A stretch of 32,000 nt of DNA from Escherichia sp. E4742 (GTDB lineage: Bacteria; Pseudomonadota; Gammaproteobacteria; Enterobacterales; Enterobacteriaceae): contig NZ_CP040443.1 of assembly GCF_005843885.1 (NCBI RefSeq), forward strand, positions 1,083,898 through 1,115,897. Reading direction: 5' to 3'. Position numbers and translations under genes: made by a program. The notes beneath the pieces were generated by a model. The model saw nothing but the letters and a program-made list of their open reading frames with translations, did not search any database and had not been told where the DNA came from. This document shows positions 8,160-30,986 of this stretch, piece by piece. How positions within the stretch are numbered: the first letter of the stretch is position 1; each line of letters starts with the position of its first letter.

Positions 8160-8207
8160 TCTTTTCCTCCTGTACAGGTTGCTTTATCATCAATCAACTG
8201 AAGTATT

Positions 8208-10658: not shown

Positions 10659-11724
10659 TTCCATGAAAATACGCACGCGGGGAACACTCGTGAATTACAT
10701 AAACTGCATCAGAGTGAGCCGGTTTATCCCCGCTGACGCGGGGAACACTTCGTGGCGTTCTCCGGGCGGCTGGTATATTGCGGTTTATCCCCGCTGGCGC
10801 GGGGAACATTCATTCACAAACTGACCGGAACCGGAGCGGAACGGTTTATCCCCGCTGGCGCGGGGAACATCAGTTGAATCAGACTAATGGAAGCCATAGC
10901 TGCGGTTTATCCCCGCTGGCGCGGGGAACATGTCCGGAAAAGTCGGCTGGGTTACGTAAATTGCGGTTTATCCCCGCTGGCGCGGGGAACATATATCAGA
11001 CAACACAGAACGCATTGATCCTGCCGGTTTATCCCCGCTGGCGCGGGGAACATGATCAACGTCGCGCTGTGATAGTTTGCTGTAACGGTTTATCCCCGCT
11101 GGCGCGGGGAACATGGCAATTTGCAGCCAACGCTTACCATTTCTGCCGGTTTATCCCCGCTGGCGCGGGGAACATATCAACTGACTCTATACTACAAAAG
11201 AGATAAGCGGTTTATCCCCGCTGGCGCGGGGAACATGCGTCCTGAAGGTATTTTCACGTCAGGGAAAACGGTTTATCCCCGCTGGCGCGGGGAACATCAG
11301 CAATGGTACCGGGTGGAAAGATGCTCTTTCGGTTTATCCCCGCTGGCGCGGGGAACATCAGTCCGCTCTGACCAATGCTGGACAGAATGCCGGTTTATCC
11401 CCGCTGGCGCGGGGAACATTCCAGGCTGTTCTCCCCACTCACGGGCGATTTCGGTTTATCCCCGCTGGCGCGGGGAACATCAGCCATGAACATCAGCTGT
11501 TCAGTGGTCTGCCGGTTTATCCCCGCTGGCGCGGGGAACATTTCTGATTGCCTTTAGTTTTTTGGCGTAATCTCGGTTTATCCCCGCTGGCGCGGGGAAC
11601 ATCTGAAGGGAAATGGCTCAGGTGTCCTGAATAACGGTTTATCCCCGCTGGCGCGGGGAACATGCCATCCGGCACTCCACCGGTTTACCGGTGAACGGTT
11701 TATCCCCGCTGGCGCGGGGAACAT
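10659..11724 (-). CRISPR. Type I-E CRISPR array: 17 full 29-nt repeats plus 1 degenerate trailer repeat, 17 unique 32-nt spacers, 61-nt period
   Basis: The plus-strand repeat is CGGTTTATCCCCGCTGGCGCGGGGAACAT, the reverse complement of ATGTTCCCCGCGCCAGCGGGGATAAACCG. Repeats start at 10720 and then every 61 nt up to 11696. The degenerate copy (10659-10687) keeps only GCGGGGAACAC. The leader and cas2 lie on the 11725+ side, so transcription runs on the minus strand. Confidence 0.98.
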
Positions 11725-11820: not shown

Positions 11821-13030
<1,210 letters not shown>

Positions 13031-13034
<4 letters not shown>

Positions 13035-13681
13035 GCCTCTGCTCCGGGTTTGATAAGCATCAGACCACAGCCGAACGCCCGGCTTTTGCCATACCCCTGG
13101 CTCAGACGTTGCAGAAATAATCCGGGATCGGTGACCGTAAGCATCCCCGTATAATCCACGCAACTGAACTGGATCAGTTGCCGGGCGTTTTCCCGCCGGA
13201 GTTGCTGTTGTCGGTAGGCATCAACCGAAGTATCCAGCAGTGTAAAACCGCTTCTTTCCCCCTGCGCTGCCAGCCAGTCCAGCGCAGCCTGTTGTTGATG
13301 CAACCAGACATCAATTCCTTCCGCCTGCCCCCTCACCTGCCGTTTCGCCTCCATCAGCAGATCGTGGCGCTTGCCCGCTTTACAGATGGTTGGATTCGCC
13401 CGCAGGTTGAAGCAAAGGGATTGTCCGGTACGCAGCTCCGGCGCAAATGGTCGGCATTCGATGGTGAAAATTTCACTTTCCGCCGGACATTCCTGCGACA
13501 GGACAAAAAAGCGAAACGCGCCCTGGAGTTCTTCCCGACGATAAAGAAATTGCCTTTCTTTTCCGCCAGGGAAAAGATCCCACAGCCACTGATGCATCAC
13601 ATATTCACCGCGATCCACCAGATGCAGCAACTGCGCAGGCGAAAGCTGGCCGGTATGTAAGGTTATTCTTGAGAGGTACAT
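13031..13681 (-). CDS. cas6e: Cas6e (CasE/Cse3) crRNA endoribonuclease
   Basis: The position is right, the start is MYLSRITL... (compare MYLSKVII in K-12 CasE), and the C-terminal glycine-rich loop is GKSRAFGCGLMLI. I placed the start at 13681. The tracked ORF extends to 13819. Confidence 0.9.
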
Positions 13682-14409
13682 GGTTCCTCCTTGCTGAGCC
13701 ACGGCCCCTGATTGATGGTGCGCTCCCCAAACAGCCATTGCTGACGATTTAAAGGAACATCCCGGCGGCGTAATATTTTGCTCACGACCAGGCCATCGTG
13801 CTCCCCTTCCCACCAGCATTCATCCTGAAGTTTCGGGAGTGAGACTTTCAGTTTGTGGAAATGATCCTGATACTGTTTGTATGCGTTACGTAAGACATGA
13901 GACGCGTTGCCTTCGAACAGTAACGGCGCAAGAGGTAATGCCAGCGGATGACTTTTTCGCCCCAGATAAAGCGGAAAAACCGGATGGCGTAAACCTTCCT
14001 GCAACTGCTCGAGGCTGTATGGCGCATCGGTAGTTTTTGCTACAGCCACCATCCACCAGGCATCGGTGTAGTAGTCGCGCCGGGAGATAATCGCGCTCAG
14101 AAGAGCAGGATCGCTCAACTCTTCGCGACGGCTGAAATAACGCGCTTTACGCACCTCTTTTGGCATCTGGATCGTGTGATAATCCCGTGCCCAGCGCGGG
14201 TTACGGCTGGCGCAAACCACCAGTGAATAGTGGCGATTAAACGCGTTTAAGCGTTCGGTATCATCACGCCGGATCCCTACCCCGGCAGCCAGCAGCCCCA
14301 GCAATGCTGAGCGCGAAGGCAGTTCATGGGTATGACGCACTTCGCCGGGGGCATCGACGCCCCAGGATGCCATCGGCCCATGAAGCTGAAAAATCAGATA
14401 TTGGCTCAT
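13663..14409 (-). CDS. cas5e: Cas5e (CasD)
   Basis: MSQYLIFQLHGPMASWG...PSRSALLGLLAAGVGIRRDD parallels the K-12 CasD N-terminus. Confidence 0.92.
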   Translation of the reverse strand: MSQYLIFQLHGPMASWGVDAPGEVRHTHELPSRSALLGLLAAGVGIRRDDTERLNAFNRHYSLVVCASRNPRWARDYHTIQMPKEVRKARYFSRREELSDPALLSAIISRRDYYTDAWWMVAVAKTTDAPYSLEQLQEGLRHPVFPLYLGRKSHPLALPLAPLLFEGNASHVLRNAYKQYQDHFHKLKVSLPKLQDECWWEGEHDGLVVSKILRRRDVPLNRQQWLFGERTINQGPWLSKEEPCTSQE

Positions 14410-14419
14410 AAGCCGCCCC

Positions 14420-15475
14420 TTACGCGCAGATAAAGTCCAGCACGTCCTTCATGCTTCCCTGTTTGTTCATCACGTCAAAACTTGCGTAATCGGTCTTCTG
14501 TTCGTAGACCGTATTCATGTTTTCGCGAAGAGTTGTAATACGCTGCACCGCCACCTCTAACTGACGGGTGCCATTAATGGGTTCATAGAAAGCTGCCGCC
14601 AGAGAACGCGGTTGATCGGTGCCTTTTTCTGCCAGCGCCCAGGAGGCATAAGCCCGGCTGGCAAAGCTGTTTTGTTTTCCGGTTGGAGAGACTTTGAGCG
14701 CGGCTTCCGTAAAGGCGCGTATGGTCTGATTAGCTAACGCTTCGTCACCGCCGAGGTTTTCTACCAGCAGATCTTTATCAATGCAGATATAGGTGTAGAA
14801 GAGCGCAGAACCGAATCCGGTTTCTCCCAGATGCCCGGCACCGGCATCTTCAGAAGCCTGGCGTAAATCATCAACGGCGGTGAAAAAATCATCTTCGACA
14901 ATCGTTTCACTGACACCAAACGCGTGCGCGACCTGGCAGGCGGCTTCAACATTAAACTCAGGTTTATTCGCCAGCATACGACCAAACATGGCGATATCTA
15001 CCGCCATGCGATCTTTACGTAACAAAGAGAGATCTTCCTCTTTTGGCGCGCGCTTTTCTTCTGCCAGTTGATGGGCCAGCGCTTTTACGGCGTCAAATTC
15101 TGCCGGGCTGATATGGACTAACTGTTCAGTTTCGGCGTTACTGAGCGGATCTTTTGGTTTTTTGTCGTTTTTAGCTTTTCCAAGATAATCCGCAATTTTT
15201 GCCGCCCATTCGATGGCTTTTTTCTCTTCGATTCCTTTCTCAATCAGGATAGTTGCCGCCTCACGCGCAATACGCCCACTGCGAATACCAATATGGCCCG
15301 CCAGTGCCTGTTCAAAAAGTGCAGAAGTGCGCCACGCACGCTTCAGACTTTGCGAGGAAACACGCAGTCGTGTTGCTCCACCCAGCACCACAGTTTTCGG
15401 CGCACCGGTATCATCACGGTTAAGGTTGGCAGCAGGGTAAGCGGTTAACAAATGAAGCTGAATAAATGTCGTCAT
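14420..15475 (-). CDS. cas7e: Cas7e (CasC/Cse4) Cascade backbone subunit
   Basis: It shows ...LNRDD...RLRVSSQSLKRAWR, the conserved Cas7e N-terminal motifs. It is 351 aa. Confidence 0.93.
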   Translation of the reverse strand: MTTFIQLHLLTAYPAANLNRDDTGAPKTVVLGGATRLRVSSQSLKRAWRTSALFEQALAGHIGIRSGRIAREAATILIEKGIEEKKAIEWAAKIADYLGKAKNDKKPKDPLSNAETEQLVHISPAEFDAVKALAHQLAEEKRAPKEEDLSLLRKDRMAVDIAMFGRMLANKPEFNVEAACQVAHAFGVSETIVEDDFFTAVDDLRQASEDAGAGHLGETGFGSALFYTYICIDKDLLVENLGGDEALANQTIRAFTEAALKVSPTGKQNSFASRAYASWALAEKGTDQPRSLAAAFYEPINGTRQLEVAVQRITTLRENMNTVYEQKTDYASFDVMNKQGSMKDVLDFICA

Positions 15476-15486
15476 GAGATAGTCCT

Positions 15487-16026
15487 TTATTGATTTTGTT
15501 CGTTATCGGCGTCGCCAGCCTGGTAATATTCCAGCGCCCAGCGGATACGGATAAATTCGGTTGGCCGCTGCTGTCGGCGGTGATGATTGAGCAGGTCGTC
15601 GCTCTCCTGGCACCAGCGGAAAATATCTTCTGCCAAAGAGATAAGATTGACGGAACCATTTAATAATTTGACCGCGCGACGTAACTGACGTAGTAAATCA
15701 TCCGGCGTTTTTACTGCCGACAGACGAGTAAAACGTCCCTCAGACATTACTGCCGCCAGCTGCGCGGCAAAAGGCTGCCGTTCATCAATAGCTTTTACAT
15801 TGGCGCTAACTGCGGCGACCAGCGCCAGTGCGGTAAAACGCCACTCTTGTGCTTCAATTTTCCACAAAGTGTGGGTCTGCATCAGCAGAGAACGAAACCC
15901 TTCTGACAAGCAAACATCATTAACCGTTGTGCTACGCCGCAGACTGGCACGATTGCCGCGTTTAGCCTGCAACTCTTCGTGCCATTTACGCAGCGTGGCT
16001 TTGTGCTCCTCTTTTACAATGCTCAT
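15487..16026 (-). CDS. cse2: Cse2 (CasB) small Cascade subunit
   Basis: A 179-aa helical, Arg-rich protein between cse1 and cas7e, overlapping cse1 by 4 nt. Confidence 0.88.
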   Translation of the reverse strand: MSIVKEEHKATLRKWHEELQAKRGNRASLRRSTTVNDVCLSEGFRSLLMQTHTLWKIEAQEWRFTALALVAAVSANVKAIDERQPFAAQLAAVMSEGRFTRLSAVKTPDDLLRQLRRAVKLLNGSVNLISLAEDIFRWCQESDDLLNHHRRQQRPTEFIRIRWALEYYQAGDADNEQNQ

Positions 16027-17585
16027 TCAGCAGCCTCCTGCTTTTTCTCCCTGGCGGCTTTAGCATTTTGCTTCTCCGCCGATGTTGTAAAATATTTCTT
16101 GCGCGCGGTCATGACGCGTTTCAAATCAACGGGCTCATATGGACTGGTGAATACACGCTCGTCAAAATCCTGACGCGCGAATAACCAAATTTCCTTTTGC
16201 CATTTGCCGAGTAATTCATCCGCATCCTGACCTTCTTCAATTCTGCGCACTAACCTCAGGAAGCGATGCTGAGTTTTGTTCCAGAAGTCGATATCCACAA
16301 AACTAAAATCCCCCCGTGCGCCTTTTGGATCGGAGAACCATGCTTCTTTCAATGCACTCCGTAACAGACTCAGAATTCGTGAAGCCGTTTGCGCAGCCAG
16401 CCGCAGTTTCGGTATCTGGCCTTCTTTTTTATTGAGCAGCAGCGGGAAATGGTGTTCGTACCAGCAGCGCGCTTTCATGTTGTCGAAATCATAGCCAAAT
16501 CCCCACAGGCCCACTTTTGCCTGTTTCAGACTGCTGGCATTGAAGAGTTTCACCACCAAAGCGGGAAGTTCCGTATTGTTTTCTGATTTACCCGTTTCGA
16601 TAAGGCCTAACCAGTCGCGCCAGATTAAACCGCCCGGTTGTGGTTTTACGGAGTAAAACTCGCCTCCCTCTTTAAGGGGTACACGGTAAGGCGTTAAGGG
16701 ATGCTGCCACATGGCATAATTCGCACCGTAATTTTTTGTCGTCATCAGGCTCAGGAGCGCGTCGCTCTGCTCACCGCAAATATCGCAGTTACCGACTTGA
16801 GTGGTATTAAAATCAATACGAATACGGCGCGGCATTCCCCAGTACGCCTGGAGTTTATTGACCTGATCATAGGTTACCACCGCACCGGCCAGTTCGCTGG
16901 TTCGCGTCGGGCCAAGCCAGGGGAAAACCAGATCATCAAATTTTTTGGGTAACGGTAAGTCGGATTCATCCTGCGGCATCACATTGAGCCACAGTTTGCG
17001 CCACAAGGGCGTTTGTTGATTGCCCTGATATTCCTGTAATTCAATCAGAGTGGTCATCGGCCCACCGCCGCGCAAACCGGTGCGGTAGCCTTTGCCACCT
17101 GACGGCGCATTTAACTGTAGGGAGAACAGAGATAACGCGGAACAATGAGGGCATATATGTTCAGTCACGCCACGTTTAATAAAGTGGTCTTTATTAAACT
17201 TCGTTGTTTGAGCGCCGGGAATCTCAGGCAGTAGCGAAGCGACCGGAATTTTATCTCCGGTGAGCGCCTCGAAATCCTGCATAAATGAAGGGGAATCTGG
17301 CCCAAACTGGAAAGCGTGCTCTAAGGACAGCAATGCTTCCCGTAGCTTTTCAACTTCCAGTCCGTCTTCCCAGATATCATCCCAACGACGGTGATCTTTT
17401 GGCGCAAAGCTGGTTTGTAGTAGCCCCAGCAAAAACTGCCATGCCGCCCCCTGGAGATCTGCCCGCGGCGCAGCGATATCGACAACATTTTCATCCGCCA
17501 GATCGACTGGCGCCAGTTTGCCTGTCGTTCCGTCTTTAAGACGAACGGGCAACCACGGGGTTGTCAGAAGTGAAAACGAGTTCAT
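16023..17585 (-). CDS. cse1: Cse1 (CasA/Cas8e) large Cascade subunit
   Basis: About 520 aa, immediately downstream of cas3 and upstream of cse2. The start MNSFSLLTTPWLPVR has GAGAGG upstream (ATG 17585). The tracked ORF extends to 17654. Confidence 0.9.
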   Translation of the reverse strand: MNSFSLLTTPWLPVRLKDGTTGKLAPVDLADENVVDIAAPRADLQGAAWQFLLGLLQTSFAPKDHRRWDDIWEDGLEVEKLREALLSLEHAFQFGPDSPSFMQDFEALTGDKIPVASLLPEIPGAQTTKFNKDHFIKRGVTEHICPHCSALSLFSLQLNAPSGGKGYRTGLRGGGPMTTLIELQEYQGNQQTPLWRKLWLNVMPQDESDLPLPKKFDDLVFPWLGPTRTSELAGAVVTYDQVNKLQAYWGMPRRIRIDFNTTQVGNCDICGEQSDALLSLMTTKNYGANYAMWQHPLTPYRVPLKEGGEFYSVKPQPGGLIWRDWLGLIETGKSENNTELPALVVKLFNASSLKQAKVGLWGFGYDFDNMKARCWYEHHFPLLLNKKEGQIPKLRLAAQTASRILSLLRSALKEAWFSDPKGARGDFSFVDIDFWNKTQHRFLRLVRRIEEGQDADELLGKWQKEIWLFARQDFDERVFTSPYEPVDLKRVMTARKKYFTTSAEKQNAKAAREKKQEAAE

Positions 17586-17682
17586 ACGCATCCTCTCGTA
17601 AAAAAGACCATCCCTGGCCGGTTGTCCATCCTTCCATCTTTTTCTGTGTATCAACTATTCAGAGAGTCCTGTCGCAGGCATC
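17586..17682 (-). promoter_or_regulatory. cas3-cse1 intergenic region, probable Cascade operon promoter by analogy with E. coli Pcas
   Basis: It is the only sizeable gap (97 nt) inside the cas cluster. I identified no specific -10/-35 elements with confidence. Confidence 0.3.
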
Positions 17683-20340
17683 TCAATCAACCTTTCCAAT
17701 CAATCCCTCCGTAGCCGAATACCCGCAACTTTCGTCATCGGAAACTAAAATCACGTTTGCCATCTCCGGATCTTGCCGCTGTTCAATGCACCACTGCCTG
17801 AACGCTTCCCCTTCCAGTAAAGAAAATTCATCCCGATGTTTTTTCCACCAGCTTCGACGCACTCTGACAACACTCATCTCCCATGCGTGAGCACCGGTGG
17901 CATAAGGCTTCACCACGCCGTTAATACAGGTAGCCAGCCACAGGGAAACAGACTCCTCAGCCAGACGTGTCGACTGTTTTTCAGGGAGGTAATCGTTGAT
18001 ATTGGCGGCATAGCCGGGCCTGAAGTTCAGCACAAACTTTTTAGCCATTGCGCGATCGCAGTAATATTTGCCCACTTGCTCCTGCTCGCTGCGGGCAAAT
18101 CCTTCCGGCATTACCACGTCCTCACCGTAGACTGATTCAATAAGAAGGCGGGCTGAGTGTGGCATCTGAATAGCGCCTTGCTCACGCAGCACACGCTGGG
18201 TCAGCCAGATTCGCCCATGATCCGGGTAGACATATGCACTGTTACGCATGGCACTGCCGAACCATTCGTCACCAGGAGCGTCGTCCCAGACGGGGGCCAG
18301 AATCAGCAATTCAGGAGGGGAACGCTCGTCTTTTCCGTCACGCTTTAACTGACCATTAATATCGCGGATATGCCGCTGTAATCGCCCCGCGCGTTGGATC
18401 AGCAAATCGATAGGGGCCAGGTCGGAAATCATTTCATCCATATCGCAATCAACGCTCTGCTCCAATACCTGAGTGCTAATAAGGACTTTTCCGGCACGCT
18501 GTGAACCGTCTTCTTTACCAAAGCGTGCCAGCGTTTCCGTTTCAATTCGCTGGCGATCGCTAAAAGCAAAGCGGCTATGAAAAAGTGAAAGGCTGGAAGC
18601 AGGAATGACGCCGCGGGCAAGCAGCTGACGATGAATCTTAATAGCGTCATCGACAGAATTCCGAATCCAGGCGATGCATTTCCCCTGACTTACCGCCGAT
18701 TCGATACGCGCAATACACTCTTGTTCACTATGGAGCCAACCCACGCTCACGCTACGCTCAACTTCTTTGCGCGTAGCTACCCGGTGTGAATTCACATCCG
18801 ATTTCGTGACATGCGTCAGCCAGGGGTAATCTTCTTTTTCCAGGAACGGAGCTTCTTGCTGACCCTCTGCGCCACGCGCAAAGGCGGCGACGAGTTTGTC
18901 GCGCTGCTGTTGGGATAACGTAGCAGAAAGCAAAATGACGCTGTTTCCGCCGCGCGCCTGCCGTTCGATCAACCCTTCAAGAATGCACGACATGTAAGCG
19001 TCACAGGCGTGGATCTCATCAGCCAGCAGGATTTTATTACTCAGCCCCAGAAGCCGCAGATTATTATGTTTGAACGGCATCACCGCCATCATCGCCTGAT
19101 CCAAAGTGCCGACGCCAATTTCAGCCAGCAACGCCTTCTTGTTACTGTCGGCAAACCAGGCCGCACATCCCTGACTGAACGTTTGTTCATCCGGTTCTTC
19201 TGACCCGACTAAATCACCGGACCAGAGTGATTCATTAAAGCGGTCCATTAATGTGCGGGCACTGTGTGCCAGCACCAGGCTGGGGCGAGATTCTGGAGAA
19301 TAGAAAGCAAGCCAGGTTTTGACCAACCGATCGTACATGGCATTGGCCGTTGCCATTGTTGGCAGGCCAAAAAACAAACCCTGTGCTTTCCCCGCAGCCA
19401 TCAACCTGTGCGCCAGGATAAGCGCCGCTTCTGTTTTACCTGCGCCAGTCACATCTTCCAGAATAAATAATTGTGGCCCTGGCTGGCTGATATCCAGATC
19501 CAGTACCTTTTGCTGTAACGGTGTCGGGTGCTCAATAAAAGGAAACAGCGTATTAATTCCGGTGAAAGGCACGGTTTGTGCTTTTGGCGGGAAGACGGTT
19601 AAGGCGTTTTGAGCCTGAACTAAAGCCTTTTGCCAGTAATCTTCAATATCCATTGTCTGTGCGACGCGTGGAAAAAATCGCGTTGACGATCCCGTCCAGT
19701 CTGCAAGTACGACGGTTGCAGAGATATACCAGGAAAGTTGTTTTATAAGTTCAACTCCCTCGTCCTCATCCCAGAATGCGGGGATCTCGATGAGCGGAAA
19801 CAGTGGTTTGATTGCAATGAGAAAATCTCGTGCAGCAGCTTTATCTTCAGGCAGAAAATTATCCAGTTCATCAATACTGTCAGGAGGCCGACCATGATGC
19901 CCGGTAGTTACGGGCATCCACATATCTATTACCCGTTTGAGCTTGCGCGGAGAGAGTGAAGATGAAGGAAGCAACTCTTCGCATCCTCTTAAATAATGAT
20001 GCCACAACCAGTAGCCCAGCGTTGAATGAGAGATTTTTTCGTAATTTTTTCTGGCACCTTCCGGCCTCCTGAGTTGTGGGTGCAGGTAAAGTTGCTGAAA
20101 TGAGCGGGCAAATTTTCCCGTATCGTGCCAGCACAACAACCAGGCGAAAAATTGTGCTGGCTGCTCCGTGTTAGCGAAACCTAATTGACGAAAATAGTCA
20201 GCCAGCCCGAAGCAGTTGCTTTTAACCATTAAATAGCCCATTGCGGCTACATCCAGCGAATGCCAGCAAAGGAGGTGATAGTCGTCACCACCCTCTTTCT
20301 CGCCACGTCGGGTTTTTCCCCAAAAATCCCAAAAAGTCAT
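17683..20340 (-). CDS. cas3: Cas3 HD nuclease / SF2 helicase (type I-E)
   Basis: The HD region reads FWGKT...HLLCWHSLDVAAM...HDTGKF...HHG. Helicase motif I is VTGAGKTEA and motif II is LLADEIHA, followed by later motifs (SATL, ...QRAGRL). I placed the start at ATG 20340 (MTFWDFWGK), by analogy with K-12 Cas3 length. The ORF is open to 20388. Confidence 0.95.
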   Translation of the reverse strand: MTFWDFWGKTRRGEKEGGDDYHLLCWHSLDVAAMGYLMVKSNCFGLADYFRQLGFANTEQPAQFFAWLLCWHDTGKFARSFQQLYLHPQLRRPEGARKNYEKISHSTLGYWLWHHYLRGCEELLPSSSLSPRKLKRVIDMWMPVTTGHHGRPPDSIDELDNFLPEDKAAARDFLIAIKPLFPLIEIPAFWDEDEGVELIKQLSWYISATVVLADWTGSSTRFFPRVAQTMDIEDYWQKALVQAQNALTVFPPKAQTVPFTGINTLFPFIEHPTPLQQKVLDLDISQPGPQLFILEDVTGAGKTEAALILAHRLMAAGKAQGLFFGLPTMATANAMYDRLVKTWLAFYSPESRPSLVLAHSARTLMDRFNESLWSGDLVGSEEPDEQTFSQGCAAWFADSNKKALLAEIGVGTLDQAMMAVMPFKHNNLRLLGLSNKILLADEIHACDAYMSCILEGLIERQARGGNSVILLSATLSQQQRDKLVAAFARGAEGQQEAPFLEKEDYPWLTHVTKSDVNSHRVATRKEVERSVSVGWLHSEQECIARIESAVSQGKCIAWIRNSVDDAIKIHRQLLARGVIPASSLSLFHSRFAFSDRQRIETETLARFGKEDGSQRAGKVLISTQVLEQSVDCDMDEMISDLAPIDLLIQRAGRLQRHIRDINGQLKRDGKDERSPPELLILAPVWDDAPGDEWFGSAMRNSAYVYPDHGRIWLTQRVLREQGAIQMPHSARLLIESVYGEDVVMPEGFARSEQEQVGKYYCDRAMAKKFVLNFRPGYAANINDYLPEKQSTRLAEESVSLWLATCINGVVKPYATGAHAWEMSVVRVRRSWWKKHRDEFSLLEGEAFRQWCIEQRQDPEMANVILVSDDESCGYSATEGLIGKVD

Positions 20341-20843
20341 ATTAACAAAAGTCTCATCATGCCAAACCTGAATATATTTCCGCTGCATTGCTTTACAAAA
20401 GTCGAAAAAATAGTTTCACACATCTTTAATGTCTTTTCATTTCAGGACAAATCAAAAACTTCAATATTCTCCAACGCACACCCTTTTTTGTATAATCCGC
20501 CATAAAACAACAATAATTTGGCAGTCTGGCTGTATGTCATATACTCTGTCGGTAAATATTCGGAAATATCACGGCACCGGTTATATTCCCCCTTATTTTG
20601 ACAGGTAGTTCAGAATCCAAACAAACAATTTATTGCTGATGGAACAACTGCTGTTGTTTTCGCGGGGACCAGGGGGCATACGTAAGCATAAAGCCAGCAC
20701 AGCCTGTTATACTGATTCCCTGCAGAATAAGTTAGAACTCTGCCTGATTCAGAAGGCGTTTTCTTCATCGCATAAAAGTTGCCATGTCATTGATATACTG
20801 TTTGCTATCCCTTTCTTCATCATTAATACCGGTTACCTGAATA

Positions 20844-21152
20844 TCAACAGGTAGGTATACCTTTTCTGAATACCTCCCCGGATGGACTGGCAATACCCAT
20901 TCGTCTCAGCGTGGCATCAGCGGCTTTCGACACCTCACTGATATCCAGTTTCTCCGGTAATGCTGGCGGTAATATCTGCTCCAGACAATATTCCCGTCGC
21001 AACAACAACCACTCCCGTTGTGCTTCTGTACATTCAACATTGCCCATAACGAAAAGCCAGCGGGCAGAAGCTCTGCGCCAGCAACCAGCAGCCTCCAGTT
21101 TCTGCGCAACCGTGTCTTCCACAACTTCCGGGGTACTCTTTTTCCTGCTCAA
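20844..21152 (-). CDS. PerC/Pch-family transcriptional activator-like protein
   Basis: KLEAAGCWRRASARWLFVM....TEAQREWLLLRREYC matches the PerC signature (G-WRRAA-RW ... QREW..RR.YC). Confidence 0.75.
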   Translation of the reverse strand: MSRKKSTPEVVEDTVAQKLEAAGCWRRASARWLFVMGNVECTEAQREWLLLRREYCLEQILPPALPEKLDISEVSKAADATLRRMGIASPSGEVFRKGIPTC

Positions 21153-21191
21153 AACATTAACTCACTGAAATAATATACATATATGACGGTC

Positions 21192-21830
21192 TCAGCGAAC
21201 CGTCCATGCCGGACTGAAATCCTCTTCCTGAAACAGCTCCGTCAGCCCGCTAATCTGTTTCAACCTGAGAACTTCATCCTGGTCCATACCCAGCTCCGTA
21301 CCAATACGTTCATCCGTCCAGCCCAGCCGCGACAGGTCCCTGACAATATCAGACATTGAAGTTATCTGGTGCTTCCCCCTGGCCCGGTTATGTCTAATGG
21401 TTGCAGCAATACGTGAGGCCTGTCCCTTTCTTTCCGGATTAATACAGGTCACTGGCAACCAGCCCTTCAGGCGTTTTCCCGTACCTGCTTCCCTGCCCAG
21501 TAATTGACGATGAAAACCATCCACGACCAGATAATGCTCCTTCTCTTCCGAGACAACCACAGGCTGCGTGAACCCATCCTGCTCCAGTGAATGTTTCAGC
21601 AGTTTCTTCTCACCCGGCGCCATGACATTGGGGTTATAATCGTTGGCCACCACCTCATCTGCTTTCACCCACAGCACACAGTCCACAGGCTCCTGTGCAA
21701 ATGGACTGACCTCATGAAGCACCCTGCGCAGATGATTCAGGGCCTGTATGGCCTCTTCTTCTGGTCGTTCCTGGCTGAAGTACTGACGAATCATGTTGCT
21801 CAGTATCTCCGGTGTCACAGAATCCCCCAT
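21192..21830 (-). CDS. ibrB: IbrB-like ParB/sulfiredoxin-fold domain protein
   Basis: It carries the ParB-like core VVDGFHRQ (DGxHR) and a C-terminal HTH-like region. It overlaps the upstream PAPS-reductase-like gene by 16 nt. Confidence 0.8.
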   Translation of the reverse strand: MGDSVTPEILSNMIRQYFSQERPEEEAIQALNHLRRVLHEVSPFAQEPVDCVLWVKADEVVANDYNPNVMAPGEKKLLKHSLEQDGFTQPVVVSEEKEHYLVVDGFHRQLLGREAGTGKRLKGWLPVTCINPERKGQASRIAATIRHNRARGKHQITSMSDIVRDLSRLGWTDERIGTELGMDQDEVLRLKQISGLTELFQEEDFSPAWTVR

Positions 21831-23047
21831 TCCTTCCTCCTTTCTTTCATACGCTGCAGATAACGTTCATAGTGCCGGGGTTTGTTCGGACTGAAGGAGA
21901 GGGTACGGCACCAGAAATCATTCTTTATGAGAGTCTTACAGATACGTCGCCAGGACGGAATATCCCGGCTCCCCAGGTCATTTTCCTGTTCATCCGGGAT
22001 GTCATCCGGAAAGCCCCGCGTCTGATACCAGCGGAGATAGACAGCTATCTTGTTGCGGTAATGTTCTGCCGTTTTTTCCGGCATCACATCCAGCAGGAAC
22101 ATCGCGTAACTGCGCCAGGTATGATGGGCCGGTTTTGATATGCGCTTACGCAGGGCAAAATAAGCCCCGCTTTCATTGGCATAAAGTGCCCCGCTGGCAG
22201 CCCCTGACACCCGCTCACACATCCTGGCCCAGGTTTCCGGCTCCAGAACATGATAAAGCCACAGCCCCTTACGCTGTTCAGGACCAAAAGGCTCACAGAC
22301 ACGCATGTTGCGTAACGGCACACCGGCACGGTGCATCAGGTCATACAGGGGATTGTAGATAGCCCGGGTTCTGGTGTGATATATCCAGATATCACGAGTT
22401 TTCCAGTCATACAGCGGATACATGGTGTAGTAAAACCCTTCAGGCGATGCCGTTGTCCAGGGCTTATCATCGGCATATCTCAGTTTGCGCTGGGACACCA
22501 GTCCCATAAAGCGATTGAGCGATTCATCCGCACGGACACCAGTCAGCACTGCCACTCCACACCGGTTACCGGCAAACCAGGAAGAAAATGCCGGAACAAA
22601 TTCTTCAAAAGTCATGGCATACCGGTAAAAGGGAAAATACGCCATATCCGTAATAGCCTCTTCAGGTGCCTGGCGAACCCACTCCACACCTGGCTCCCAG
22701 CATATCCACTCCGGCTGAAACTGAGAGACACCGTTTACCGTAGTCAGGGGGAGTGCCACCCAGTAAAAGGTTTCCGTCACATCATGGTACATTTCCCGCA
22801 TCTTCTGAATATGTTCAATGGTGCACTGGTACTGGGCTTCCCAGTCAATAAACAATACAGAGAAATGACATTTTTTCCTGCGAGCCACATTTGCCACCAG
22901 ATGAAAAAGCACGGTGGAATCCTTTCCACCTGAAAAAGACAGGCATACAGACTGAAAAGTTTCAAAGATCCACTCAATGCGGGCGGTTGCTGCACGCAGA
23001 ACATTTTCTCCAGTAAGAATTTTTTCAGTTAAAAATGTATCACTCAT
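21815..23047 (-). CDS. ibrA: IbrA-like PP-loop ATP pyrophosphatase (PAPS reductase family) with C-terminal extension
   Basis: The PP-loop reads LSFSGGKDSTVLFHL. It is 410 aa, longer than CysH, and is paired with a ParB-like gene as in ibrAB. Confidence 0.8.
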   Translation of the reverse strand: MSDTFLTEKILTGENVLRAATARIEWIFETFQSVCLSFSGGKDSTVLFHLVANVARRKKCHFSVLFIDWEAQYQCTIEHIQKMREMYHDVTETFYWVALPLTTVNGVSQFQPEWICWEPGVEWVRQAPEEAITDMAYFPFYRYAMTFEEFVPAFSSWFAGNRCGVAVLTGVRADESLNRFMGLVSQRKLRYADDKPWTTASPEGFYYTMYPLYDWKTRDIWIYHTRTRAIYNPLYDLMHRAGVPLRNMRVCEPFGPEQRKGLWLYHVLEPETWARMCERVSGAASGALYANESGAYFALRKRISKPAHHTWRSYAMFLLDVMPEKTAEHYRNKIAVYLRWYQTRGFPDDIPDEQENDLGSRDIPSWRRICKTLIKNDFWCRTLSFSPNKPRHYERYLQRMKERRKEWGIL

Positions 23048-23267
23048 TTTCCTGACTTTATGTCGAATAATTCTGTTTATGCATTCAGATAAACTTCATT
23101 AATACCATTACCGCCTTTGGGTAAAAAATAACAATAAAATTCATCAAATATCAATCTATTTTTGTTTATTACTCACTTCTTTTTTACTGGTAATGCTTCT
23201 GAAAAAAAATATAAACTTTCAACTTATACCATCCTTTCAACTTGTAAATAAGGGGATATGATGCCAG

Positions 23268-23588
23268 ATGGTAAACGATTCAAATATCATTTTGCAGGAA
23301 GTATTCACTGTAATAGAACTACCCCTGATAAAGTTTATTCACGAAAGAATTATTCAACAGAACCATTTCCTGTTAACTTTGAACAATAGCACTTATTTTT
23401 ATATGTATCGGGAATGCGTTGATGTAACCAAAACAAAGAAATCTGTGCCCATGGATTTCGTACAATTGTGTGTAGCGTATGACCTAATCAGGCTTGAGGA
23501 CTCCCGCTGCAATGTTTTTTATTCAGACATTAGCCTGACAGACCTGACAGAAACGCTCCCAACTTCCCTTCTATATCACTGTCTATAG
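23268..23588 (+). CDS. Hypothetical protein (doubtful)
   Basis: An AT-rich ORF that converges on and overlaps the 3' end of the helicase gene by 59 nt. I recognise no motif. Confidence 0.15.
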   Translation: MVNDSNIILQEVFTVIELPLIKFIHERIIQQNHFLLTLNNSTYFYMYRECVDVTKTKKSVPMDFVQLCVAYDLIRLEDSRCNVFYSDISLTDLTETLPTSLLYHCL

Positions 23589-25926
23589 TACGTAATCTTA
23601 ATAATGGCAGGCCACATTTCTTCAGTATACTGTTTTTAAGTTCATCACGTTCAGCCTGGACACTGGTCAGATGATAACCTCCGTCCACTTCAATAACCCC
23701 TAATGGTGTCTTCCCGACCTTATAGTAAACAACAAAGTCACAACTGGCCCGGTTGCGCATGAATAACAGCTCACGGTGTGTAAAATCTCCCCGCTCCAGC
23801 AACACCAACTGATTCAGCGCTATTTGTGAATGAAACATCATACTCCGATAACTATCCTGCGACATGATATCCCGCAACAGGCAGGCAACAATCTGTTCTG
23901 ACTTAAAGCGTGAATCATTTGAATTCAATCTACTATTCAGTCGTTCCAGTGATTTGTCATACTCACTGTACAGCAAATCAAAAGCTGATATCACCGGGCT
24001 CTCGAAAATTTCTCCGTCATCAGCGTAGTATTTGATGTAACGAATCAGTGCCGCAATATGTCCAGCGTGGCGTTCAAATACATCATTACCAGTCACCAGC
24101 GTAAATTTATTTCGGGCCCTTGAAACAGCGACATTCACCAGTTCAGGATTATCAACAAACGCGATGTTCCGACTTTGCTGGCTGCTGCGTTTCTTATCCA
24201 GCACAGTGGAAAACACTATTTCATCGCACTCCCGCCCCTGAAATTTATGCACCGTCGATTTCACAAAATCAGCGGGCAGCACTGTTTCAGCCAGATTAAC
24301 CTGTGCATTATATGGAGCGATGTATCCCCTGCTACTTTCTTCATCCCAGTAATGACCTTCCAGAGATTCAAGCTCCCTGAGATTTGAAAAATTACGGGTA
24401 TGGTTTCCTTTTGCCGTGATGACCAGAGATAATGAGGCTTCACCTGAATCAACCGTTAGAGGTATCAGAGCATTATCATAAAACTGCTTATTACAAAATT
24501 GAATGATTTTAGGATGACAGCGATAATGCTCTTTAAGAAGAGTTACTGGCACCATGTTCCTGAACAACATACAAACCGAATCAAGTAGACTATATTTCTC
24601 ACAATTATAGTATTCTGCCGGTGGAGATGGGCTGTTCGGGAGTAATACGGGAACATGTGGAAGTTGCTTACGATCCCCTACAACGATTACATTACGGGCA
24701 CATCCCAGCCCAAGTATTCCCGGAATAATATCCTGCTGTGAGGCTTCATCAATAATCACATAATCAAGAAGGGCACCCTTACCGATAGAGTTAATAATCG
24801 AATGCGTGCTGCTACCAATAACCGGAAAACGCTTTATAAAACGGTCAAATTCATCCCTGTATGTCTCTGCCGAGAATGAATTTCTTGTTGAAATATTTCT
24901 TCGCAGATGTTGCTTTAAATAAAGCACAGACCATGATGTCAGGCTCCCCAGTAAAATTTTGAAATCAGATTTTTTTAATACTTCCTCATATTCATTCAGA
25001 GAAATTTGTTTTTCCCGGATAGTTTTTTCATAATAAGAAAGCTGAAGAAAAGTAAACAGTGCCAGCCTTCTCTCCGGAATCATCAATGGTTTGACTTTCA
25101 GTATCCTGAAGTTTAACAAAAAATCAATTCTGTTTCTGAATCCAATCCGCCTGTCAGAAAGGTAATGAATATAAGCCATCAGGTCGGTTGTTTTTTGTGA
25201 GGAAAATCGGTATTTGTGAGAAAAAAGCTCCTCCGGTCGAAGATTCTGACTCTGCCATTGCTGCAGGTATTTATACTCAATATTCAGCTCATTAATTTCT
25301 GCTTTTAACGAAGCGACCTGGTTAATGGCATTCAGGTGTTTTTTCACTTGTTGAAGTACATCATCAATCGCATTTGCAGACGGTGAGTCAGGTAAGACTT
25401 CCTCAGAACGCGAAATCGACGTTGAAAAAAACTGTTGCCTGTTCTCCGTACTCCCCAGTCGTGCCACCACATACCCCAGTTGCTGTTTGTCCATCTTTTC
25501 ATAAACATTACTGACAGCTGAGTTATTATTGGACAAAATTGCCACTGTTTTATTCTGAATTAATATATTAGCAACAATATTGAGTATAGTCTGTGTTTTA
25601 CCTGTTCCAGGTGGTCCTTCAATAACTGAAATCTGTGAGGAGAATGCCCGTTCGACAGCCAGCAACTGACTTTCATTAAGACCAAACGGAAAAATCAAAC
25701 CCCATAGCGAATCACGTTTTTTACTCTGTCCTGAACAGTATGCATGCAAGGCGGTATCCGGATGAGGAACTATTTTCTTTATCTGCCTAAGGATATTCTC
25801 ATCGATATTTCGGTTATTACCACGAGCATAAAAAATACGTTCATTAGCCACCCTACACAAGTAATTAAACACGGCATGCTCTGTAAATGCTGAACACTGT
25901 TGAAAGTCAAGGCCGGTCGTTTTCAT
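23530..25926 (-). CDS. Upf1/DNA2-like SF1B helicase fused to a C-terminal DUF2726/Vsr-like PD-(D/E)xK nuclease domain
   Basis: Helicase motifs present: Walker A GPPGTGKT, motif II VIIDEASQ, VVGDRKQLP, HYRCHPKI, YIAPYNAQV, TVHKFQGRECDEIVFS and VAVSRARNKF. The C-terminal CDFVVYYK....PLGVIEVDGGYH......ERDELKNSILKKCGLPLLRL matches the DUF2726/DUF559 pattern. Confidence 0.85.
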   Translation of the reverse strand: MKTTGLDFQQCSAFTEHAVFNYLCRVANERIFYARGNNRNIDENILRQIKKIVPHPDTALHAYCSGQSKKRDSLWGLIFPFGLNESQLLAVERAFSSQISVIEGPPGTGKTQTILNIVANILIQNKTVAILSNNNSAVSNVYEKMDKQQLGYVVARLGSTENRQQFFSTSISRSEEVLPDSPSANAIDDVLQQVKKHLNAINQVASLKAEINELNIEYKYLQQWQSQNLRPEELFSHKYRFSSQKTTDLMAYIHYLSDRRIGFRNRIDFLLNFRILKVKPLMIPERRLALFTFLQLSYYEKTIREKQISLNEYEEVLKKSDFKILLGSLTSWSVLYLKQHLRRNISTRNSFSAETYRDEFDRFIKRFPVIGSSTHSIINSIGKGALLDYVIIDEASQQDIIPGILGLGCARNVIVVGDRKQLPHVPVLLPNSPSPPAEYYNCEKYSLLDSVCMLFRNMVPVTLLKEHYRCHPKIIQFCNKQFYDNALIPLTVDSGEASLSLVITAKGNHTRNFSNLRELESLEGHYWDEESSRGYIAPYNAQVNLAETVLPADFVKSTVHKFQGRECDEIVFSTVLDKKRSSQQSRNIAFVDNPELVNVAVSRARNKFTLVTGNDVFERHAGHIAALIRYIKYYADDGEIFESPVISAFDLLYSEYDKSLERLNSRLNSNDSRFKSEQIVACLLRDIMSQDSYRSMMFHSQIALNQLVLLERGDFTHRELLFMRNRASCDFVVYYKVGKTPLGVIEVDGGYHLTSVQAERDELKNSILKKCGLPLLRLRTIDSDIEGKLGAFLSGLSG

Positions 25927-25935
25927 GATGTAGGG

Positions 25936-26211
25936 TCACTCACCCTCGCGGTAATAAACAGCAGCATATTTATCACCATATATAATAACCCGTTCAGCCC
26001 GGGATGTTACAGCGTCCCCTTTCTTTTCGAGGAAAACATTTCGCAAATTTACAGTTGGCGTTATCTGACATACAGAAAGCGGACGAGTATATTTTTTCCC
26101 GCTGCGAAAATGACAGGTCAGCATAACCTCTCCGTCGTCATTTCCAGCCCACAGCGTCCAGTCGGTAATTTTATGAGTCTTATTTTCACCGTCAACATAA
26201 ATCGTGACCAT
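25936..26211 (-). CDS. Small beta-rich hypothetical protein, first gene of the helicase operon
   Basis: It is 91 aa and its stop lies 9 nt before the helicase ATG. The same strand and absence of a terminator between the two genes suggest co-transcription. I recognise no motif. Confidence 0.5.
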   Translation of the reverse strand: MVTIYVDGENKTHKITDWTLWAGNDDGEVMLTCHFRSGKKYTRPLSVCQITPTVNLRNVFLEKKGDAVTSRAERVIIYGDKYAAVYYREGE

Positions 26212-26718
26212 ATTCTCACTCAGAAATTATCATTTAACTTACGGAAAATTGTTAAGGCACTCCCGATATTAGCTCCGGAGGATTTTCCACAACTCCGGGA
26301 CTGTTAACATATTTCCGCCTGCCATATATACATTGAATTCAGTCATAACAGTCAATACCAGAATTACAGGAACGCGATGCCGATACGCTGGTTATTAAAT
26401 ACTGGTAGCCCTGGGCACTAATTCATCACGATACTCTGTATTTACTGTTTTCACTGCTTTTTACAACCATTCCACCAGGAAAAAGAGTCCATTTATCACG
26501 CTCCTCTTTAACGCCTGCCAGCCTAATTTAAGAATGGATACCGTGGGTGGAATAAACAATACTTACTCCGAACTGCTGTCATATTTCTGTTCTGGTATGC
26601 CACTATTTCGTGGGCACTCTTCACACCGCAATGAGTTTCAAGGAAACGAATCTCTTTGATTGTTCATGGTGTACACATTCTTTTGGGTTTATTTTTCATT
26701 ATCATATTTTATCAACCA

Positions 26719-29770: not shown

Positions 29771-30986
29771 TTACTCAGGTAGTGTATAAACGCTACCATT
29801 GTCATCTCGTTTCAGCAGTTTCCAGCAAGCCCTGTGCTGCTTACCGTGCTTATCCTCAAACGGGGGCATTTTCTGCCCTTCGCGGGTCTGGATGTACTCG
29901 GTGGTGCCATTAACCATCGCGGCCCATTGTCCGGCATGGGGCGCTATTTCATCGGTCCAGCATTTAATGCGTTCGGGGGCGCAAGATTTCCCCATTTCTT
30001 CTTTATCGAGCAGGGCGCTGGCTTCGTCAAAACGGGCAAACCATGCCATTGAAGACGCTTCTTCAAACTGAAGTCCTTCATATTCTGAGTAAAAATGCAG
30101 ACCATTGCGTCCATCATAGCGAATGGAACGAATGACCTGGTTCACCTTCACCAGCAGCGGCGATAAACCTTCTGTTTTCATCTCTCCCAGTGGCGGGGGG
30201 AGTTCACCGGCTTTAAGTACAACACCATTGTTATAGGGTAGCAGGCTAATTTCAGGCGTTTTAGCTAAACGATGTTTTACTCTCTCTGCCCCCCCCAGTT
30301 TTTCCAGCCACGGCGTACCGAGAATGGTGTACCAGCAGGCACCTTTCAGCCCCTCAACGGCTTCACCGCCTTCAAGCGTCCCAAGAGAATCCACCATCAC
30401 ACCCGGAAAAACGCTGCGCCAGGGCGAATTCATAGGGAAACATCCGTTCGAATGCATAAGGAAGTGCAAACGACAGTCCTGCATAACCACTTTCCACGGT
30501 GAAGTTGTCACACAACCACATCAGCCAGGCTTCATATCGCTTTTTACCATCAGCTTCTTTTAGCAAGGACAATGGAAATGTTAGTTTAATAACTGAACGG
30601 TCATTGTCATTATGAAACACCCTTTTTCCCATGATAAGAATGTCGTAATCGGGGGCTAAAAAATCCTTCTCTGCGCTACTCAGATACCAGGAAAAAATCT
30701 CTTCAGGCGTTGAATCGAGGATCTCCTGCCGCTTTTTGGCGTAGTTATTATCAGTGATGCCAACCCAGTTTTTGGTGATCGTTTTTTTCAGCCAGGGTTT
30801 AAACTCCCCATAGAAGCGATCCACGCACTCCACCATCCTGCGGCGGACTTCTGGCGTATGTCCGTCCTTAAAAAAGACGGTGATAATCAGACCGAGATTG
30901 ACTGCCGGACTGCCGTCTTTGTATTTCACGGAGGCTTCCGGCAGCCATTTCTCAATGTAGTTCAGCTCAAAATCATGCAATTCCAT
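29771..30986 (-). pseudogene. T6SS immunity protein (DUF3396-like, TsiV-type) split by a frameshift
   Basis: Two overlapping ORFs (30372-30986 and 29771-30511) together span about 405 codons. They rejoin as ...ALAQRF|PGVMVDSLG if one A of the A5 run at 30407-30411 is removed. AGGAG lies 7 nt upstream of the ATG, which is 12 nt after the effector stop. Confidence 0.7.

Follow-up and report, generated by a model that had tools for sequence, protein, structure and literature searches.

A nonsense-disrupted gene of Escherichia sp. E4742 and its family of helicase-nucleases, candidates for a role in bacterial defence

Helicases joined to nucleases recur among the described bacterial defence systems, the closest of which, for the gene considered here, are Hhe (Gao et al. 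2020), Mokosh, Nhi and Hna, and the CoCoNuTs. Hna and Nhi are triggered by phage single-stranded DNA-binding protein or by replication complexes (PMC10732053). CoCoNuTs are defined by a near-invariant association with CnuB/McrB and CnuC/McrC, to which CnuA is added in Type III-B, and their authors argue for an RNA target in related systems (Bell et al., eLife 2024, PMC11090510). The DUF2726 domain, for its part, is presented in the literature searched only as a domain of restriction endonuclease (REase) fold that occurs joined to diverse N-terminal modules linked with defence (PMC3710099). A gene combining an Upf1-like helicase with such a domain lies on the reverse strand of a 32,000-nucleotide (nt) stretch of the genome of Escherichia sp. 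E4742 (contig NZ_CP040443.1, positions 1,083,898 to 1,115,897), the whole of which is called the window in what follows. An earlier reading of this DNA from its letters alone, the sequence-only reading, had seen at 23530-26211 a module of two genes, encoding a small beta-rich protein of 91 amino acids (aa) and a helicase-nuclease of 798 aa. The analysis presented here leads to a different account: the region is one gene disrupted by a nonsense codon, its apparent two-gene architecture is an annotation artefact, and its intact relatives form a large family.

The reading frame and its internal stop codon

Both open reading frames (ORFs) were found where they had been reported, 9 nt apart, but they lie in the same frame, because 276 + 9 + 2397 = 2682 nt, and a single TGA is the sole interruption between them (Table 1). 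Translation of the entire region gives a continuous protein with one internal stop (YYREGE, stop, PYIMKTT). The orthologous gene of E. coli STEC005, which is 95% identical in nucleotides, has an uninterrupted frame of 893 codons and reads ...YHEGERPYIMKTT... / ...YYHEGERPYIMKTT... where the window has its stop; its annotation is that of a single 'AAA domain-containing protein' of 893 aa, and E. coli orthologues also bear the name 'DUF2726 domain-containing protein' (intact alleles are WP_172950831.1, from STEC005, and WP_000225633.1). Codon 92 is TGA in the window versus CGA in both STEC005 and O157:H7. Hence, a C-to-T change turned Arg92 (CGA) into a stop in this genome. The O157:H7 copy (strain 8368, locus L001, 9549-12229) carries a 1-nt deletion elsewhere in the gene and is annotated as two products of 171 and 722 aa; since this lesion differs from that of the window, the gene has been inactivated at least two times independently in Escherichia. 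Apparently disrupted or split ORFs are present also in five other loci (L032, L043, L060, L062 and L063).

What, then, is the 91-aa ORF, which had been taken for the gene of a possible sensor, adaptor or antitoxin? It corresponds to residues 1-91 of the same protein, severed from the remainder by the nonsense mutation. Among the 62 loci in which this segment is detectable it lies within the helicase ORF in 55, and in the remaining ones the helicase ORF appears to be disrupted or split. A phmmer search with the 91-aa piece against 1.84 billion representative proteins produced 36 matches and revealed no free-standing family of this protein: the short matches that were read run on into linker and helicase sequence and are therefore truncated fragments of the helicase-nuclease family, to which the one full-length match scanned belongs as well. 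Two giant proteins matching the same query (P0144 and P0155) were set aside, for their Pfam content is unrelated (TSP1, HYR, beta-helix, PKD). The 90% protein cluster of the 91-aa stub has as its representative an unrelated partial IbrA (DUF3440), the similarity to which is undetectable (E 15); this is a clustering artefact rather than homology, and it may mislead automated annotation.

The disruption is recent. The ratio of nonsynonymous to synonymous substitution rates (dN/dS) between the window and STEC005 is 0.135 by the Nei-Gojobori method, implying past purifying selection and a recent nonsense change. None of the 521 complete E. coli genomes that carry the segment has an exact match to the 76 nt around the stop, the closest showing two mismatches, as in O157:H7. 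In a collection of 15 billion proteins the 798-aa product was found on two contigs only, one in a National Center for Biotechnology Information (NCBI) draft assembly and the other in a Logan assembly of run SRR6148341, and the exact 91-aa sequence is present also on a contig of 5.12 Mb; in the 90% cluster of the 798-aa product, the members of which number thousands, 893-aa products are common. The window copy is most likely a pseudogene, inactive or crippled, because its N-terminal domain is no longer covalently attached.

These results bear on three other ways of explaining the split. A true operon of two genes, with a separate beta-rich sensor, adaptor or antitoxin preceding the helicase-nuclease, would agree with two ORFs closely spaced on one strand, which the gene callers applied to this genome separate as well; yet it deserves hardly any credence, given that one TGA stands in a shared frame where relatives have CGA, that every full-length homologue examined is a single ORF, as in the 55 loci above, that the 91-aa piece has no free-standing homologue, that the split allele is confined to two contigs against thousands of cluster members, and that the O157:H7 gene is broken elsewhere by a frameshift. 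Nearly as improbable is an error of sequencing or assembly behind which the gene would be intact in the organism: the difference is indeed of a single base and unmatched among the 521 complete genomes, but the identical 798-aa and 91-aa products in the draft and in the independent Logan assembly, together with the exact 91-aa sequence on the 5.12-Mb contig, argue against it. We give a small chance, though a larger one, to the view that the split gene retains some function, either through re-initiation at the ATG of Met96 or through read-through of the TGA-C context; its products would be an enzyme devoid of the N-terminal domain, with or without that domain bound non-covalently, or traces of the full-length protein. 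In E. coli, TGA followed by C is a weak terminator, an in-frame ATG lies 9 nt past the stop, and the remainder is intact with all its catalytic motifs and, as the dN/dS ratio indicates, free of visible decay. Against this, that ATG lacks a good Shine-Dalgarno sequence at the proper spacing, the closest GAG ending at -13, the low dN/dS is for the most part a record of the time preceding a recent mutation, the allele is private to one lineage, and the N-terminal region has been kept across the superfamily, which argues for its being needed in cis.

Architecture and distribution of the family

In the numbering of the 893-aa protein, which is used here unless otherwise stated, residues 1-105 form an all-beta domain that is followed by a helical linker extending to about residue 175. 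The intact protein, of about 890-910 aa, is thus laid out, as far as profiles and models predict, as a family-specific all-beta N-terminal domain plus linker (about 175 aa), a helicase with an insertion, a second helical linker (residues 744-815) and a nuclease. The assignment of an Upf1/DNA2-type superfamily 1B helicase fused to a C-terminal DUF2726/Vsr-like nuclease, proposed in the sequence-only reading, is borne out by Pfam, which on the 798-aa product matches AAA_11 at residues 83-423 and AAA_12 at 530-612 for the best stretch (E 4e-22, 79.6 bits, and 8e-22, 78.1 bits; cut-off 27), and DUF2726 (PF10881) at 718-784 (1.5e-12, 47.8 bits versus a cut-off of 24.7); weaker matches in the nuclease region are to DUF559 (0.006) and MTES_1575 (0.019). 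All the motifs that had been quoted were found (Table 1), and the full superfamily 1 (SF1) set is present (I, Ia, II with DEAS, III, IV, V and VI). The helicase motifs are invariant in 25 homologues, and so are D825, E841, D843, H847, R855, D856 and K859 of the nuclease. Judged from these motifs, the ATPase/helicase set and the predicted PD-(D/E)xK-type site are both intact on one polypeptide.

Structural comparison with Foldseek gave SETX, UPF1, DNA2, Sen1 and ZNFX1 as the best matches of the helicase (E 4e-9 to 1.5e-4, with SETX, UPF1 and DNA2 at 4e-9 to 7e-7), and a profile search against the sequences of the PDB returned IGHMBP2, UPF1 and DNA2. The nuclease domain has a pLDDT (predicted local distance difference test) score of about 85 in the full-length AlphaFold model. 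The 91 N-terminal residues of the window are modelled by AlphaFold2 with eight strands and a pLDDT of 91, and have no significant structural neighbour in the PDB or BFVD, where the best E values are 0.13 and 0.12, respectively, nor any significant match in Pfam or PHROGs; short likenesses to chromo, Tudor and SH3-like barrels stay below threshold.

The family is large. With the 893-aa protein as query, 3,762 proteins were obtained at E ≤ 1e-5; among the matches listed, the best cover 100% of the query with lengths of 888-910 aa, and the sources include Salmonella, Cedecea, Yersinia, Serratia, Edwardsiella, Pantoea, Photorhabdus, Photobacterium, Methylobacillus, Burkholderia, Pseudomonas, Telmatospirillum and others. 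Scanning one genome per species confirmed a relative at no fewer than 584 of the 600 stretches examined, and the bacterial species with a homologue encoded by a single ORF of 888-930 aa number at least 584. The copies of Enterococcus and Coprobacillaceae are about 50-57% identical. A second clade (L064-L084), mainly of Firmicutes with some metagenome-assembled genomes of Alphaproteobacteria, has 36-38% identity and lengths of 910-930 aa. Its layout is the same, about 175 aa without Pfam match preceding AAA_11/12 and then DUF2726, and its N-terminal region, although very divergent, shares homology with that of the main clade (95.8% probability by hhalign, E 7e-9, 162 columns); hence, the N-terminal domain is an old and integral part of the protein. 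More distant relatives, with about 35% identity over residues 113-889, were seen on two Bacteroidales plasmids.

Within E. coli, 655 of 5,426 complete genomes (12%) carry the gene. Among 72,556 plasmid records 18 contain it, most of these being about 1-2 Mb in size, and phage genomes gave two partial matches only; a plasmid or phage origin was rejected on account of this rarity.

Table 1. Coordinates of the disrupted gene, its parts and other features of the window
Feature	Position	Strand	Remarks
Whole disrupted gene	23530..26211	-	893 sense codons plus terminal stop; internal TGA at codon 92
91-aa ORF, residues 1-91 of full protein	25936-26211 (sense codons 25939..26211)	-	Most of the all-beta N-terminal domain
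Premature stop TGA, codon 92	25936..25938	-	CGA (Arg) or Lys in relatives, by codon comparison and alignment column R/K
Residual 798-codon ORF	23530..25926	-	Helical linker, helicase and nuclease; begins at Met96 of full protein
RecA1 half of Upf1-like SF1B helicase (Pfam AAA_11)	24658..25680	-	Encloses the helical insertion
Walker A GPPGTGKT	25594-25617	-	Residues 199-206
Helical insertion	24892-25377	-	About 160 residues after Walker A; helices about 279-440 in AlphaFold2 model
DEAS	24739-24750	-	Residues 488-491
VGDRKQLP	24658-24681	-	In RecA1 half
RecA2 half (Pfam AAA_12)	23992..24672	-	Pfam and motifs
KEHYRCHP	24511-24534	-	In RecA2 half
Motif V KFQGRE	24229-24246	-	In RecA2 half
Motif VI VAVSRAR	24112-24132	-	In RecA2 half
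DUF2726/Vsr-like PD-(D/E)xK endonuclease domain	23533..23844	-	C-terminal; Pfam DUF2726
CDFVV	23728-23742	-	Nuclease domain
IEVDGGYH	23671-23694	-	Nuclease domain
GLPLLRL	23593-23613	-	Nuclease domain
Promoter-like site TTAACA-18-GATAAT	26226..26255	-	10/12 consensus matches, by scan only; just upstream of the full-length start (26211)
AT-rich non-coding spacer, gene to ibrA	23048..23529		32% GC
Spacer, gene to type VI secretion VasL-domain gene	26212..26718		39% GC
Type I-E CRISPR array	about 10780-11541		61-nt period; repeat CGGTTTATCCCCGCTGGCGCGGGGAACA
cas3-casABCDE-cas1-cas2 operon	12111-20388	-	Complete
perC-like gene, ibrB, ibrA	20844-23047	-	IbrA: PAPS reductase plus DUF3440
TsiV, N-terminal ORF	30372-30986	-	Profile positions 1-150
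TsiV, C-terminal ORF	29771-30511	-	Profile positions 144-271

Genomic context and possible function

On one side the gene is flanked by cas3, perC, ibrB and ibrA, and on the other by a type VI secretion system (T6SS) block with VasL, TssE and TsiV. Its guanine plus cytosine (GC) content of 41.6% differs from the 51-54% of the neighbouring genes, and both flanks are AT-rich, as had been noted earlier (Table 1), with no Rfam match at E ≤ 0.1 for an RNA element in either of them. The view that gene and flanks form an independently acquired cassette did not survive comparison: nucleotide homology across genera is confined to the ORF and its short edges, of about 35 nt upstream of the start codon and about 10 nt downstream of the stop, so that the AT-rich flanks are not a conserved unit. 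In the upstream spacer, homology to E. coli O157 stops at about 26484. For the same reason a mobile cassette with conserved ends was rejected, direct repeats having been seen in two loci linked to guaA only.

The gene is solitary, without any conserved partner. All-against-all clustering of the ORFs within about 6 kb on either side showed the recurrence only of guaA/guaB and of generic families (ATP-binding cassette ATPases, short-chain dehydrogenases/reductases, LysR and two-component regulators), and the 112 immediate neighbours in 56 loci contain 129 Pfam families, none of which appears more than three times; a conserved partner gene within that distance was rejected on these two grounds. 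The Pfam-annotated loci of Serratia, Pseudomonas agarici, Edwardsiella, Salmonella, Herminiimonas and Nitrincola have no neighbour in common. Strong matches to defence profiles of PADLOC account for about 10 of these 112 neighbours (PDC-S34 three times, type I REase, OloB, AbiEii, PDC-M01B, PDC-S02, PDC-M05B and ZorF).

What function could such a solitary enzyme serve? We hold it to be rather likely, from sequence comparisons, that the window contains the decayed single gene of a helicase-nuclease which in its intact form would be a stand-alone, single-polypeptide defence enzyme acting on nucleic acids; the intact family probably serves bacterial defence against invading DNA. Several traits have the colour of defence, namely the presence in 12% of E. 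coli, the low GC content, the independent lesions, the scarcity on plasmids and in phages, some defence genes among the neighbours, the surroundings of the Nitrincola and Salmonella copies, and the position of the window copy between CRISPR-Cas and T6SS. In the mechanism that we propose, the helicase would load onto the invader's single-stranded nucleic acid, for example replication or recombination intermediates, and move 5'-3' along it using ATP, as Upf1-like helicases do, while the tethered endonuclease would cut the same nucleic acid; the N-terminal domain may be a sensor or an autoinhibitory gate limiting activity to infected cells. By analogy with the triggers of Hna and Nhi (PMC10732053), replication intermediates would be the most plausible trigger, and DNA is slightly favoured over RNA as the target. 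A more specific version, possible but doubtful in our judgement, is that of an unnamed immune system consisting of one protein and distributed among Proteobacteria and Firmicutes, a sort of 'solo CnuH' without McrBC, in which the N-terminal domain would be a new sensor or autoinhibitor and the window allele a natural deletion of this domain.

Various points weigh against the defence interpretation. No experimental work on any family member was found in the literature searched, in which only the CoCoNuT papers proved relevant, and many copies, for instance those of Serratia, P. agarici, Edwardsiella and Herminiimonas, reside among ordinary metabolic genes without a defence neighbour. The share of defence genes among immediate neighbours is a raw figure of about 9% and at most suggestive. 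The sensor role of the N-terminal domain is pure conjecture, because no fold was assigned to this domain with the PDB, BFVD, Pfam or PHROGs. Moreover, AlphaFold modelled the RecA2 half poorly, with pLDDT below 50 for residues 514-759, so that no inter-domain geometry or packing can be read from the model. Finally, the mode of action may be direct degradation or abortive infection, and the target may likewise be DNA or RNA.

Part of this evidence would fit an accessory enzyme of DNA or RNA metabolism, either a DNA2-like nuclease-helicase for end processing and repair or an Upf1-like factor of RNA surveillance. The closest solved structures belong to eukaryotic housekeeping proteins (UPF1, IGHMBP2, SETX/Sen1, DNA2), several of the many copies amid metabolic genes directly follow guaB-guaA, and conservation is unusually high for a defence protein, with 56-60% identity between Enterobacteria, Pseudomonas and Burkholderia. 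We nevertheless consider this role unlikely, since the gene is patchy at the strain level, atypical in GC and disrupted several times independently, has neither a conserved operon partner nor a syntenic position, sits in some genomes among defence or toxin-antitoxin genes, and finds its nearest bacterial profiles in the defence helicases MkoA, MkoC, PDC-S37 and Hhe. A very remote prospect is that the enzyme constitutes the restriction arm of a modification-restriction system together with ibrA, encoding a 3'-phosphoadenosine-5'-phosphosulfate (PAPS) reductase/DUF3440 protein, and the ParB-like ibrB, by analogy with DndC/DndB-type modules. The suggestion comes from ibrA, which follows 482 nt downstream, in the same orientation, both in the window and in those E. 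coli loci that were inspected; but none of the 82 non-E. coli loci has IbrA or IbrB within 6-9 kb of the gene, which leaves only the two E. coli loci of 84, and the GC content of 41.6% contrasts with 51.2%. Furthermore, the cas3-perC-ibrBA block recurs in E. coli SWHEFF_58, where the helicase gene is missing, hence perC-ibrBA is an independent module. A functional link with ibrAB was rejected accordingly.

Other observations concern the surroundings of the gene. In the window, the perC-like gene, ibrB and ibrA lie between cas3 and the helicase gene, next to a complete cas operon of type I-E with its array of clustered regularly interspaced short palindromic repeats (CRISPR); the operon is about 95% identical to that of E. 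coli, like the rest of the window. The TsiV gene, for type VI immunity to VRR-NUC effectors, appears to be split into two overlapping ORFs (29771-30986 overall), which suggests a second frameshift pseudogene in the window. In Nitrincola (L090, 2835-8852) the gene comes after a RES-Xre toxin-antitoxin pair, an RNase_T protein and a protein of 1,443 aa without Pfam match; that of Salmonella Newport (L087) is preceded by a 422-aa LAGLIDADG_3 protein (7654-8922), 79 nt before it, and by a NERD-UvrD helicase about 6 kb upstream. About 11 loci (L017, L020, L023, L025, L045, L047, L048, L052, L055, L056, L059), all from Beta- and Gammaproteobacteria save that of one Firmicute, Beduini (L045), have the helicase gene downstream of guaA or a fragment thereof, and in three loci the two genes are at most 250 nt apart and share a strand. 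In Billgrantia (L020) and Franzmannia (L056) the gene stands between direct repeats, which are fragments of the guaA 3'-end and have 91% identity over 192 nt and 90 nt. The linkage and these repeats together suggest that the end of guaA is an integration hot spot. Beside the gene of Billgrantia there is a 1,278-aa ORF (L020, 9396-13232, reverse strand), the N-terminal FFCGAGVS of which resembles by eye the nucleotide-binding motif of the SIR2 family, and which may be another defence-type gene at the hot spot.

Comparison with known systems

The earlier statement that no named system fits this architecture was upheld: the profiles of PADLOC and NCBIfam match the helicase core only. The best PADLOC matches are MkoA (1.2e-43, profile positions 616-1100 of 1112), MkoC (1.4e-41), PDC-S37 and Hhe (9e-17). 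In NCBIfam, ProA reaches 109 bits versus a cut-off of 1500 and Hhe (NF042953) 76.7 bits versus 2000, in two short stretches. Equally sound were the remarks that the protein has no phospholipase D (PLD) domain, carries its nuclease at the C-terminus and is much shorter than Hhe, as Pfam, PADLOC and a length of about one half attest.

With Hhe the family shares the combination of an AAA_11/AAA_12-type SF1 helicase and a C-terminal Vsr-like endonuclease in one protein. Unlike Hhe, however, the protein has 893 aa versus profiles of about 1,800-1,900 positions, DUF4011 is not among the best 25 of its 28 Pfam matches at E ≤ 1, and the match to the PADLOC profile of Hhe (PDLC02194, 1,911 positions) covers only about 80-120 residues around Walker A. 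The absence of DUF4011 and the half length set it apart from Hhe. Its helicase core is of the MkoA/MkoC type of Mokosh, and MkoC too is a single polypeptide with a helicase and a C-terminal nuclease. Here, in contrast, the nuclease is DUF2726/Vsr-like instead of PLD, there is neither a PLD domain among the best 25 of the 28 Pfam matches nor a match to MkoB, roughly the first 600 positions of the Mko profiles find no match, and the MkoC match ends at 953-963 of 1,136, before the PLD part; lacking the PLD domain, the protein is not Mokosh.

To Mokosh belongs yjhR, the K-12 pseudogene that had been thought a decayed relative of the window gene. It is the C-terminal remnant of a MkoC of Mokosh type II: the sequence (L086, 5016-6032) matches the PADLOC profile of MkoC with 3.8e-139 at positions 812-1135, and corresponds to the last 338 residues or so of MkoC, comprising the end of the helicase and the PLD domain, with a MkoB-like stretch at 176-304. 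This agrees with the treatment of YjhR as a fused Mokosh (bioRxiv 10.1101/2022.12.12.520048). The similarity of YjhR to the window protein is limited to helicase motifs V-VI, where 96 aa align at 31% identity. For the window, therefore, the result is one of correction, because the apparent new two-gene defence architecture and the link to yjhR were both wrong.

Two more groups to compare are Nhi and Hna, and the eukaryotic helicases. The nuclease of Nhi is N-terminal and Hna has motifs of superfamily 2; the nuclease here is C-terminal. The likeness to these two is one of concept, that of a helicase and a nuclease acting alone on one polypeptide (PMC10732053); no model for either is among the PADLOC matches at E ≤ 1, the content of that library being unconfirmed for Nhi. 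UPF1, IGHMBP2, SETX/Sen1, DNA2 and ZNFX1 have the same helicase core, and DNA2 also couples it to a PD-(D/E)xK nuclease, which is N-terminal, however, and of a different family; identity with the eukaryotic Upf1-like helicases is 12-16%, and none of them has the N-terminal beta domain or DUF2726. If the defence interpretation is true, the family would offer a bacterial model for the coupling of Upf1/DNA2-class helicases to nucleases, and if an intact allele protects against phages, a compact system of one gene would be added to those already known. The nonsense codon of the window and the frameshift of O157:H7 are natural broken alleles and thus ready-made controls.

The closest described architecture is that of the CnuH found in CoCoNuTs of Type III-B, with which the comparison was made by description (Bell et al., eLife 2024, PMC11090510). 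Both have an Upf1-like helicase, a helical insertion of coiled-coil type after Walker A and a Vsr-like nuclease fused to the C-terminus of the helicase. They part at the N-terminus, where III-B CnuH carries a Sul7s-like winged helix-turn-helix (wHTH) domain and an oligonucleotide/oligosaccharide-binding (OB) fold (PMC11090510), while the present family has an all-beta domain, with no structural match of wHTH type and no OB fold evident in the model. They part also in their surroundings, for unlike in CoCoNuTs neighbours of McrB/McrC type are missing from the window and from seven loci annotated with Pfam, and no family exceeds three occurrences among the 112 neighbours. The window gene thus belongs to a large and well-conserved family of helicase-nucleases that has no partner gene and is distinguished from Hhe, Mokosh and CoCoNuTs by the very features that define these systems, while coming nearest, in the order of its helicase, insertion and nuclease, to CnuH.

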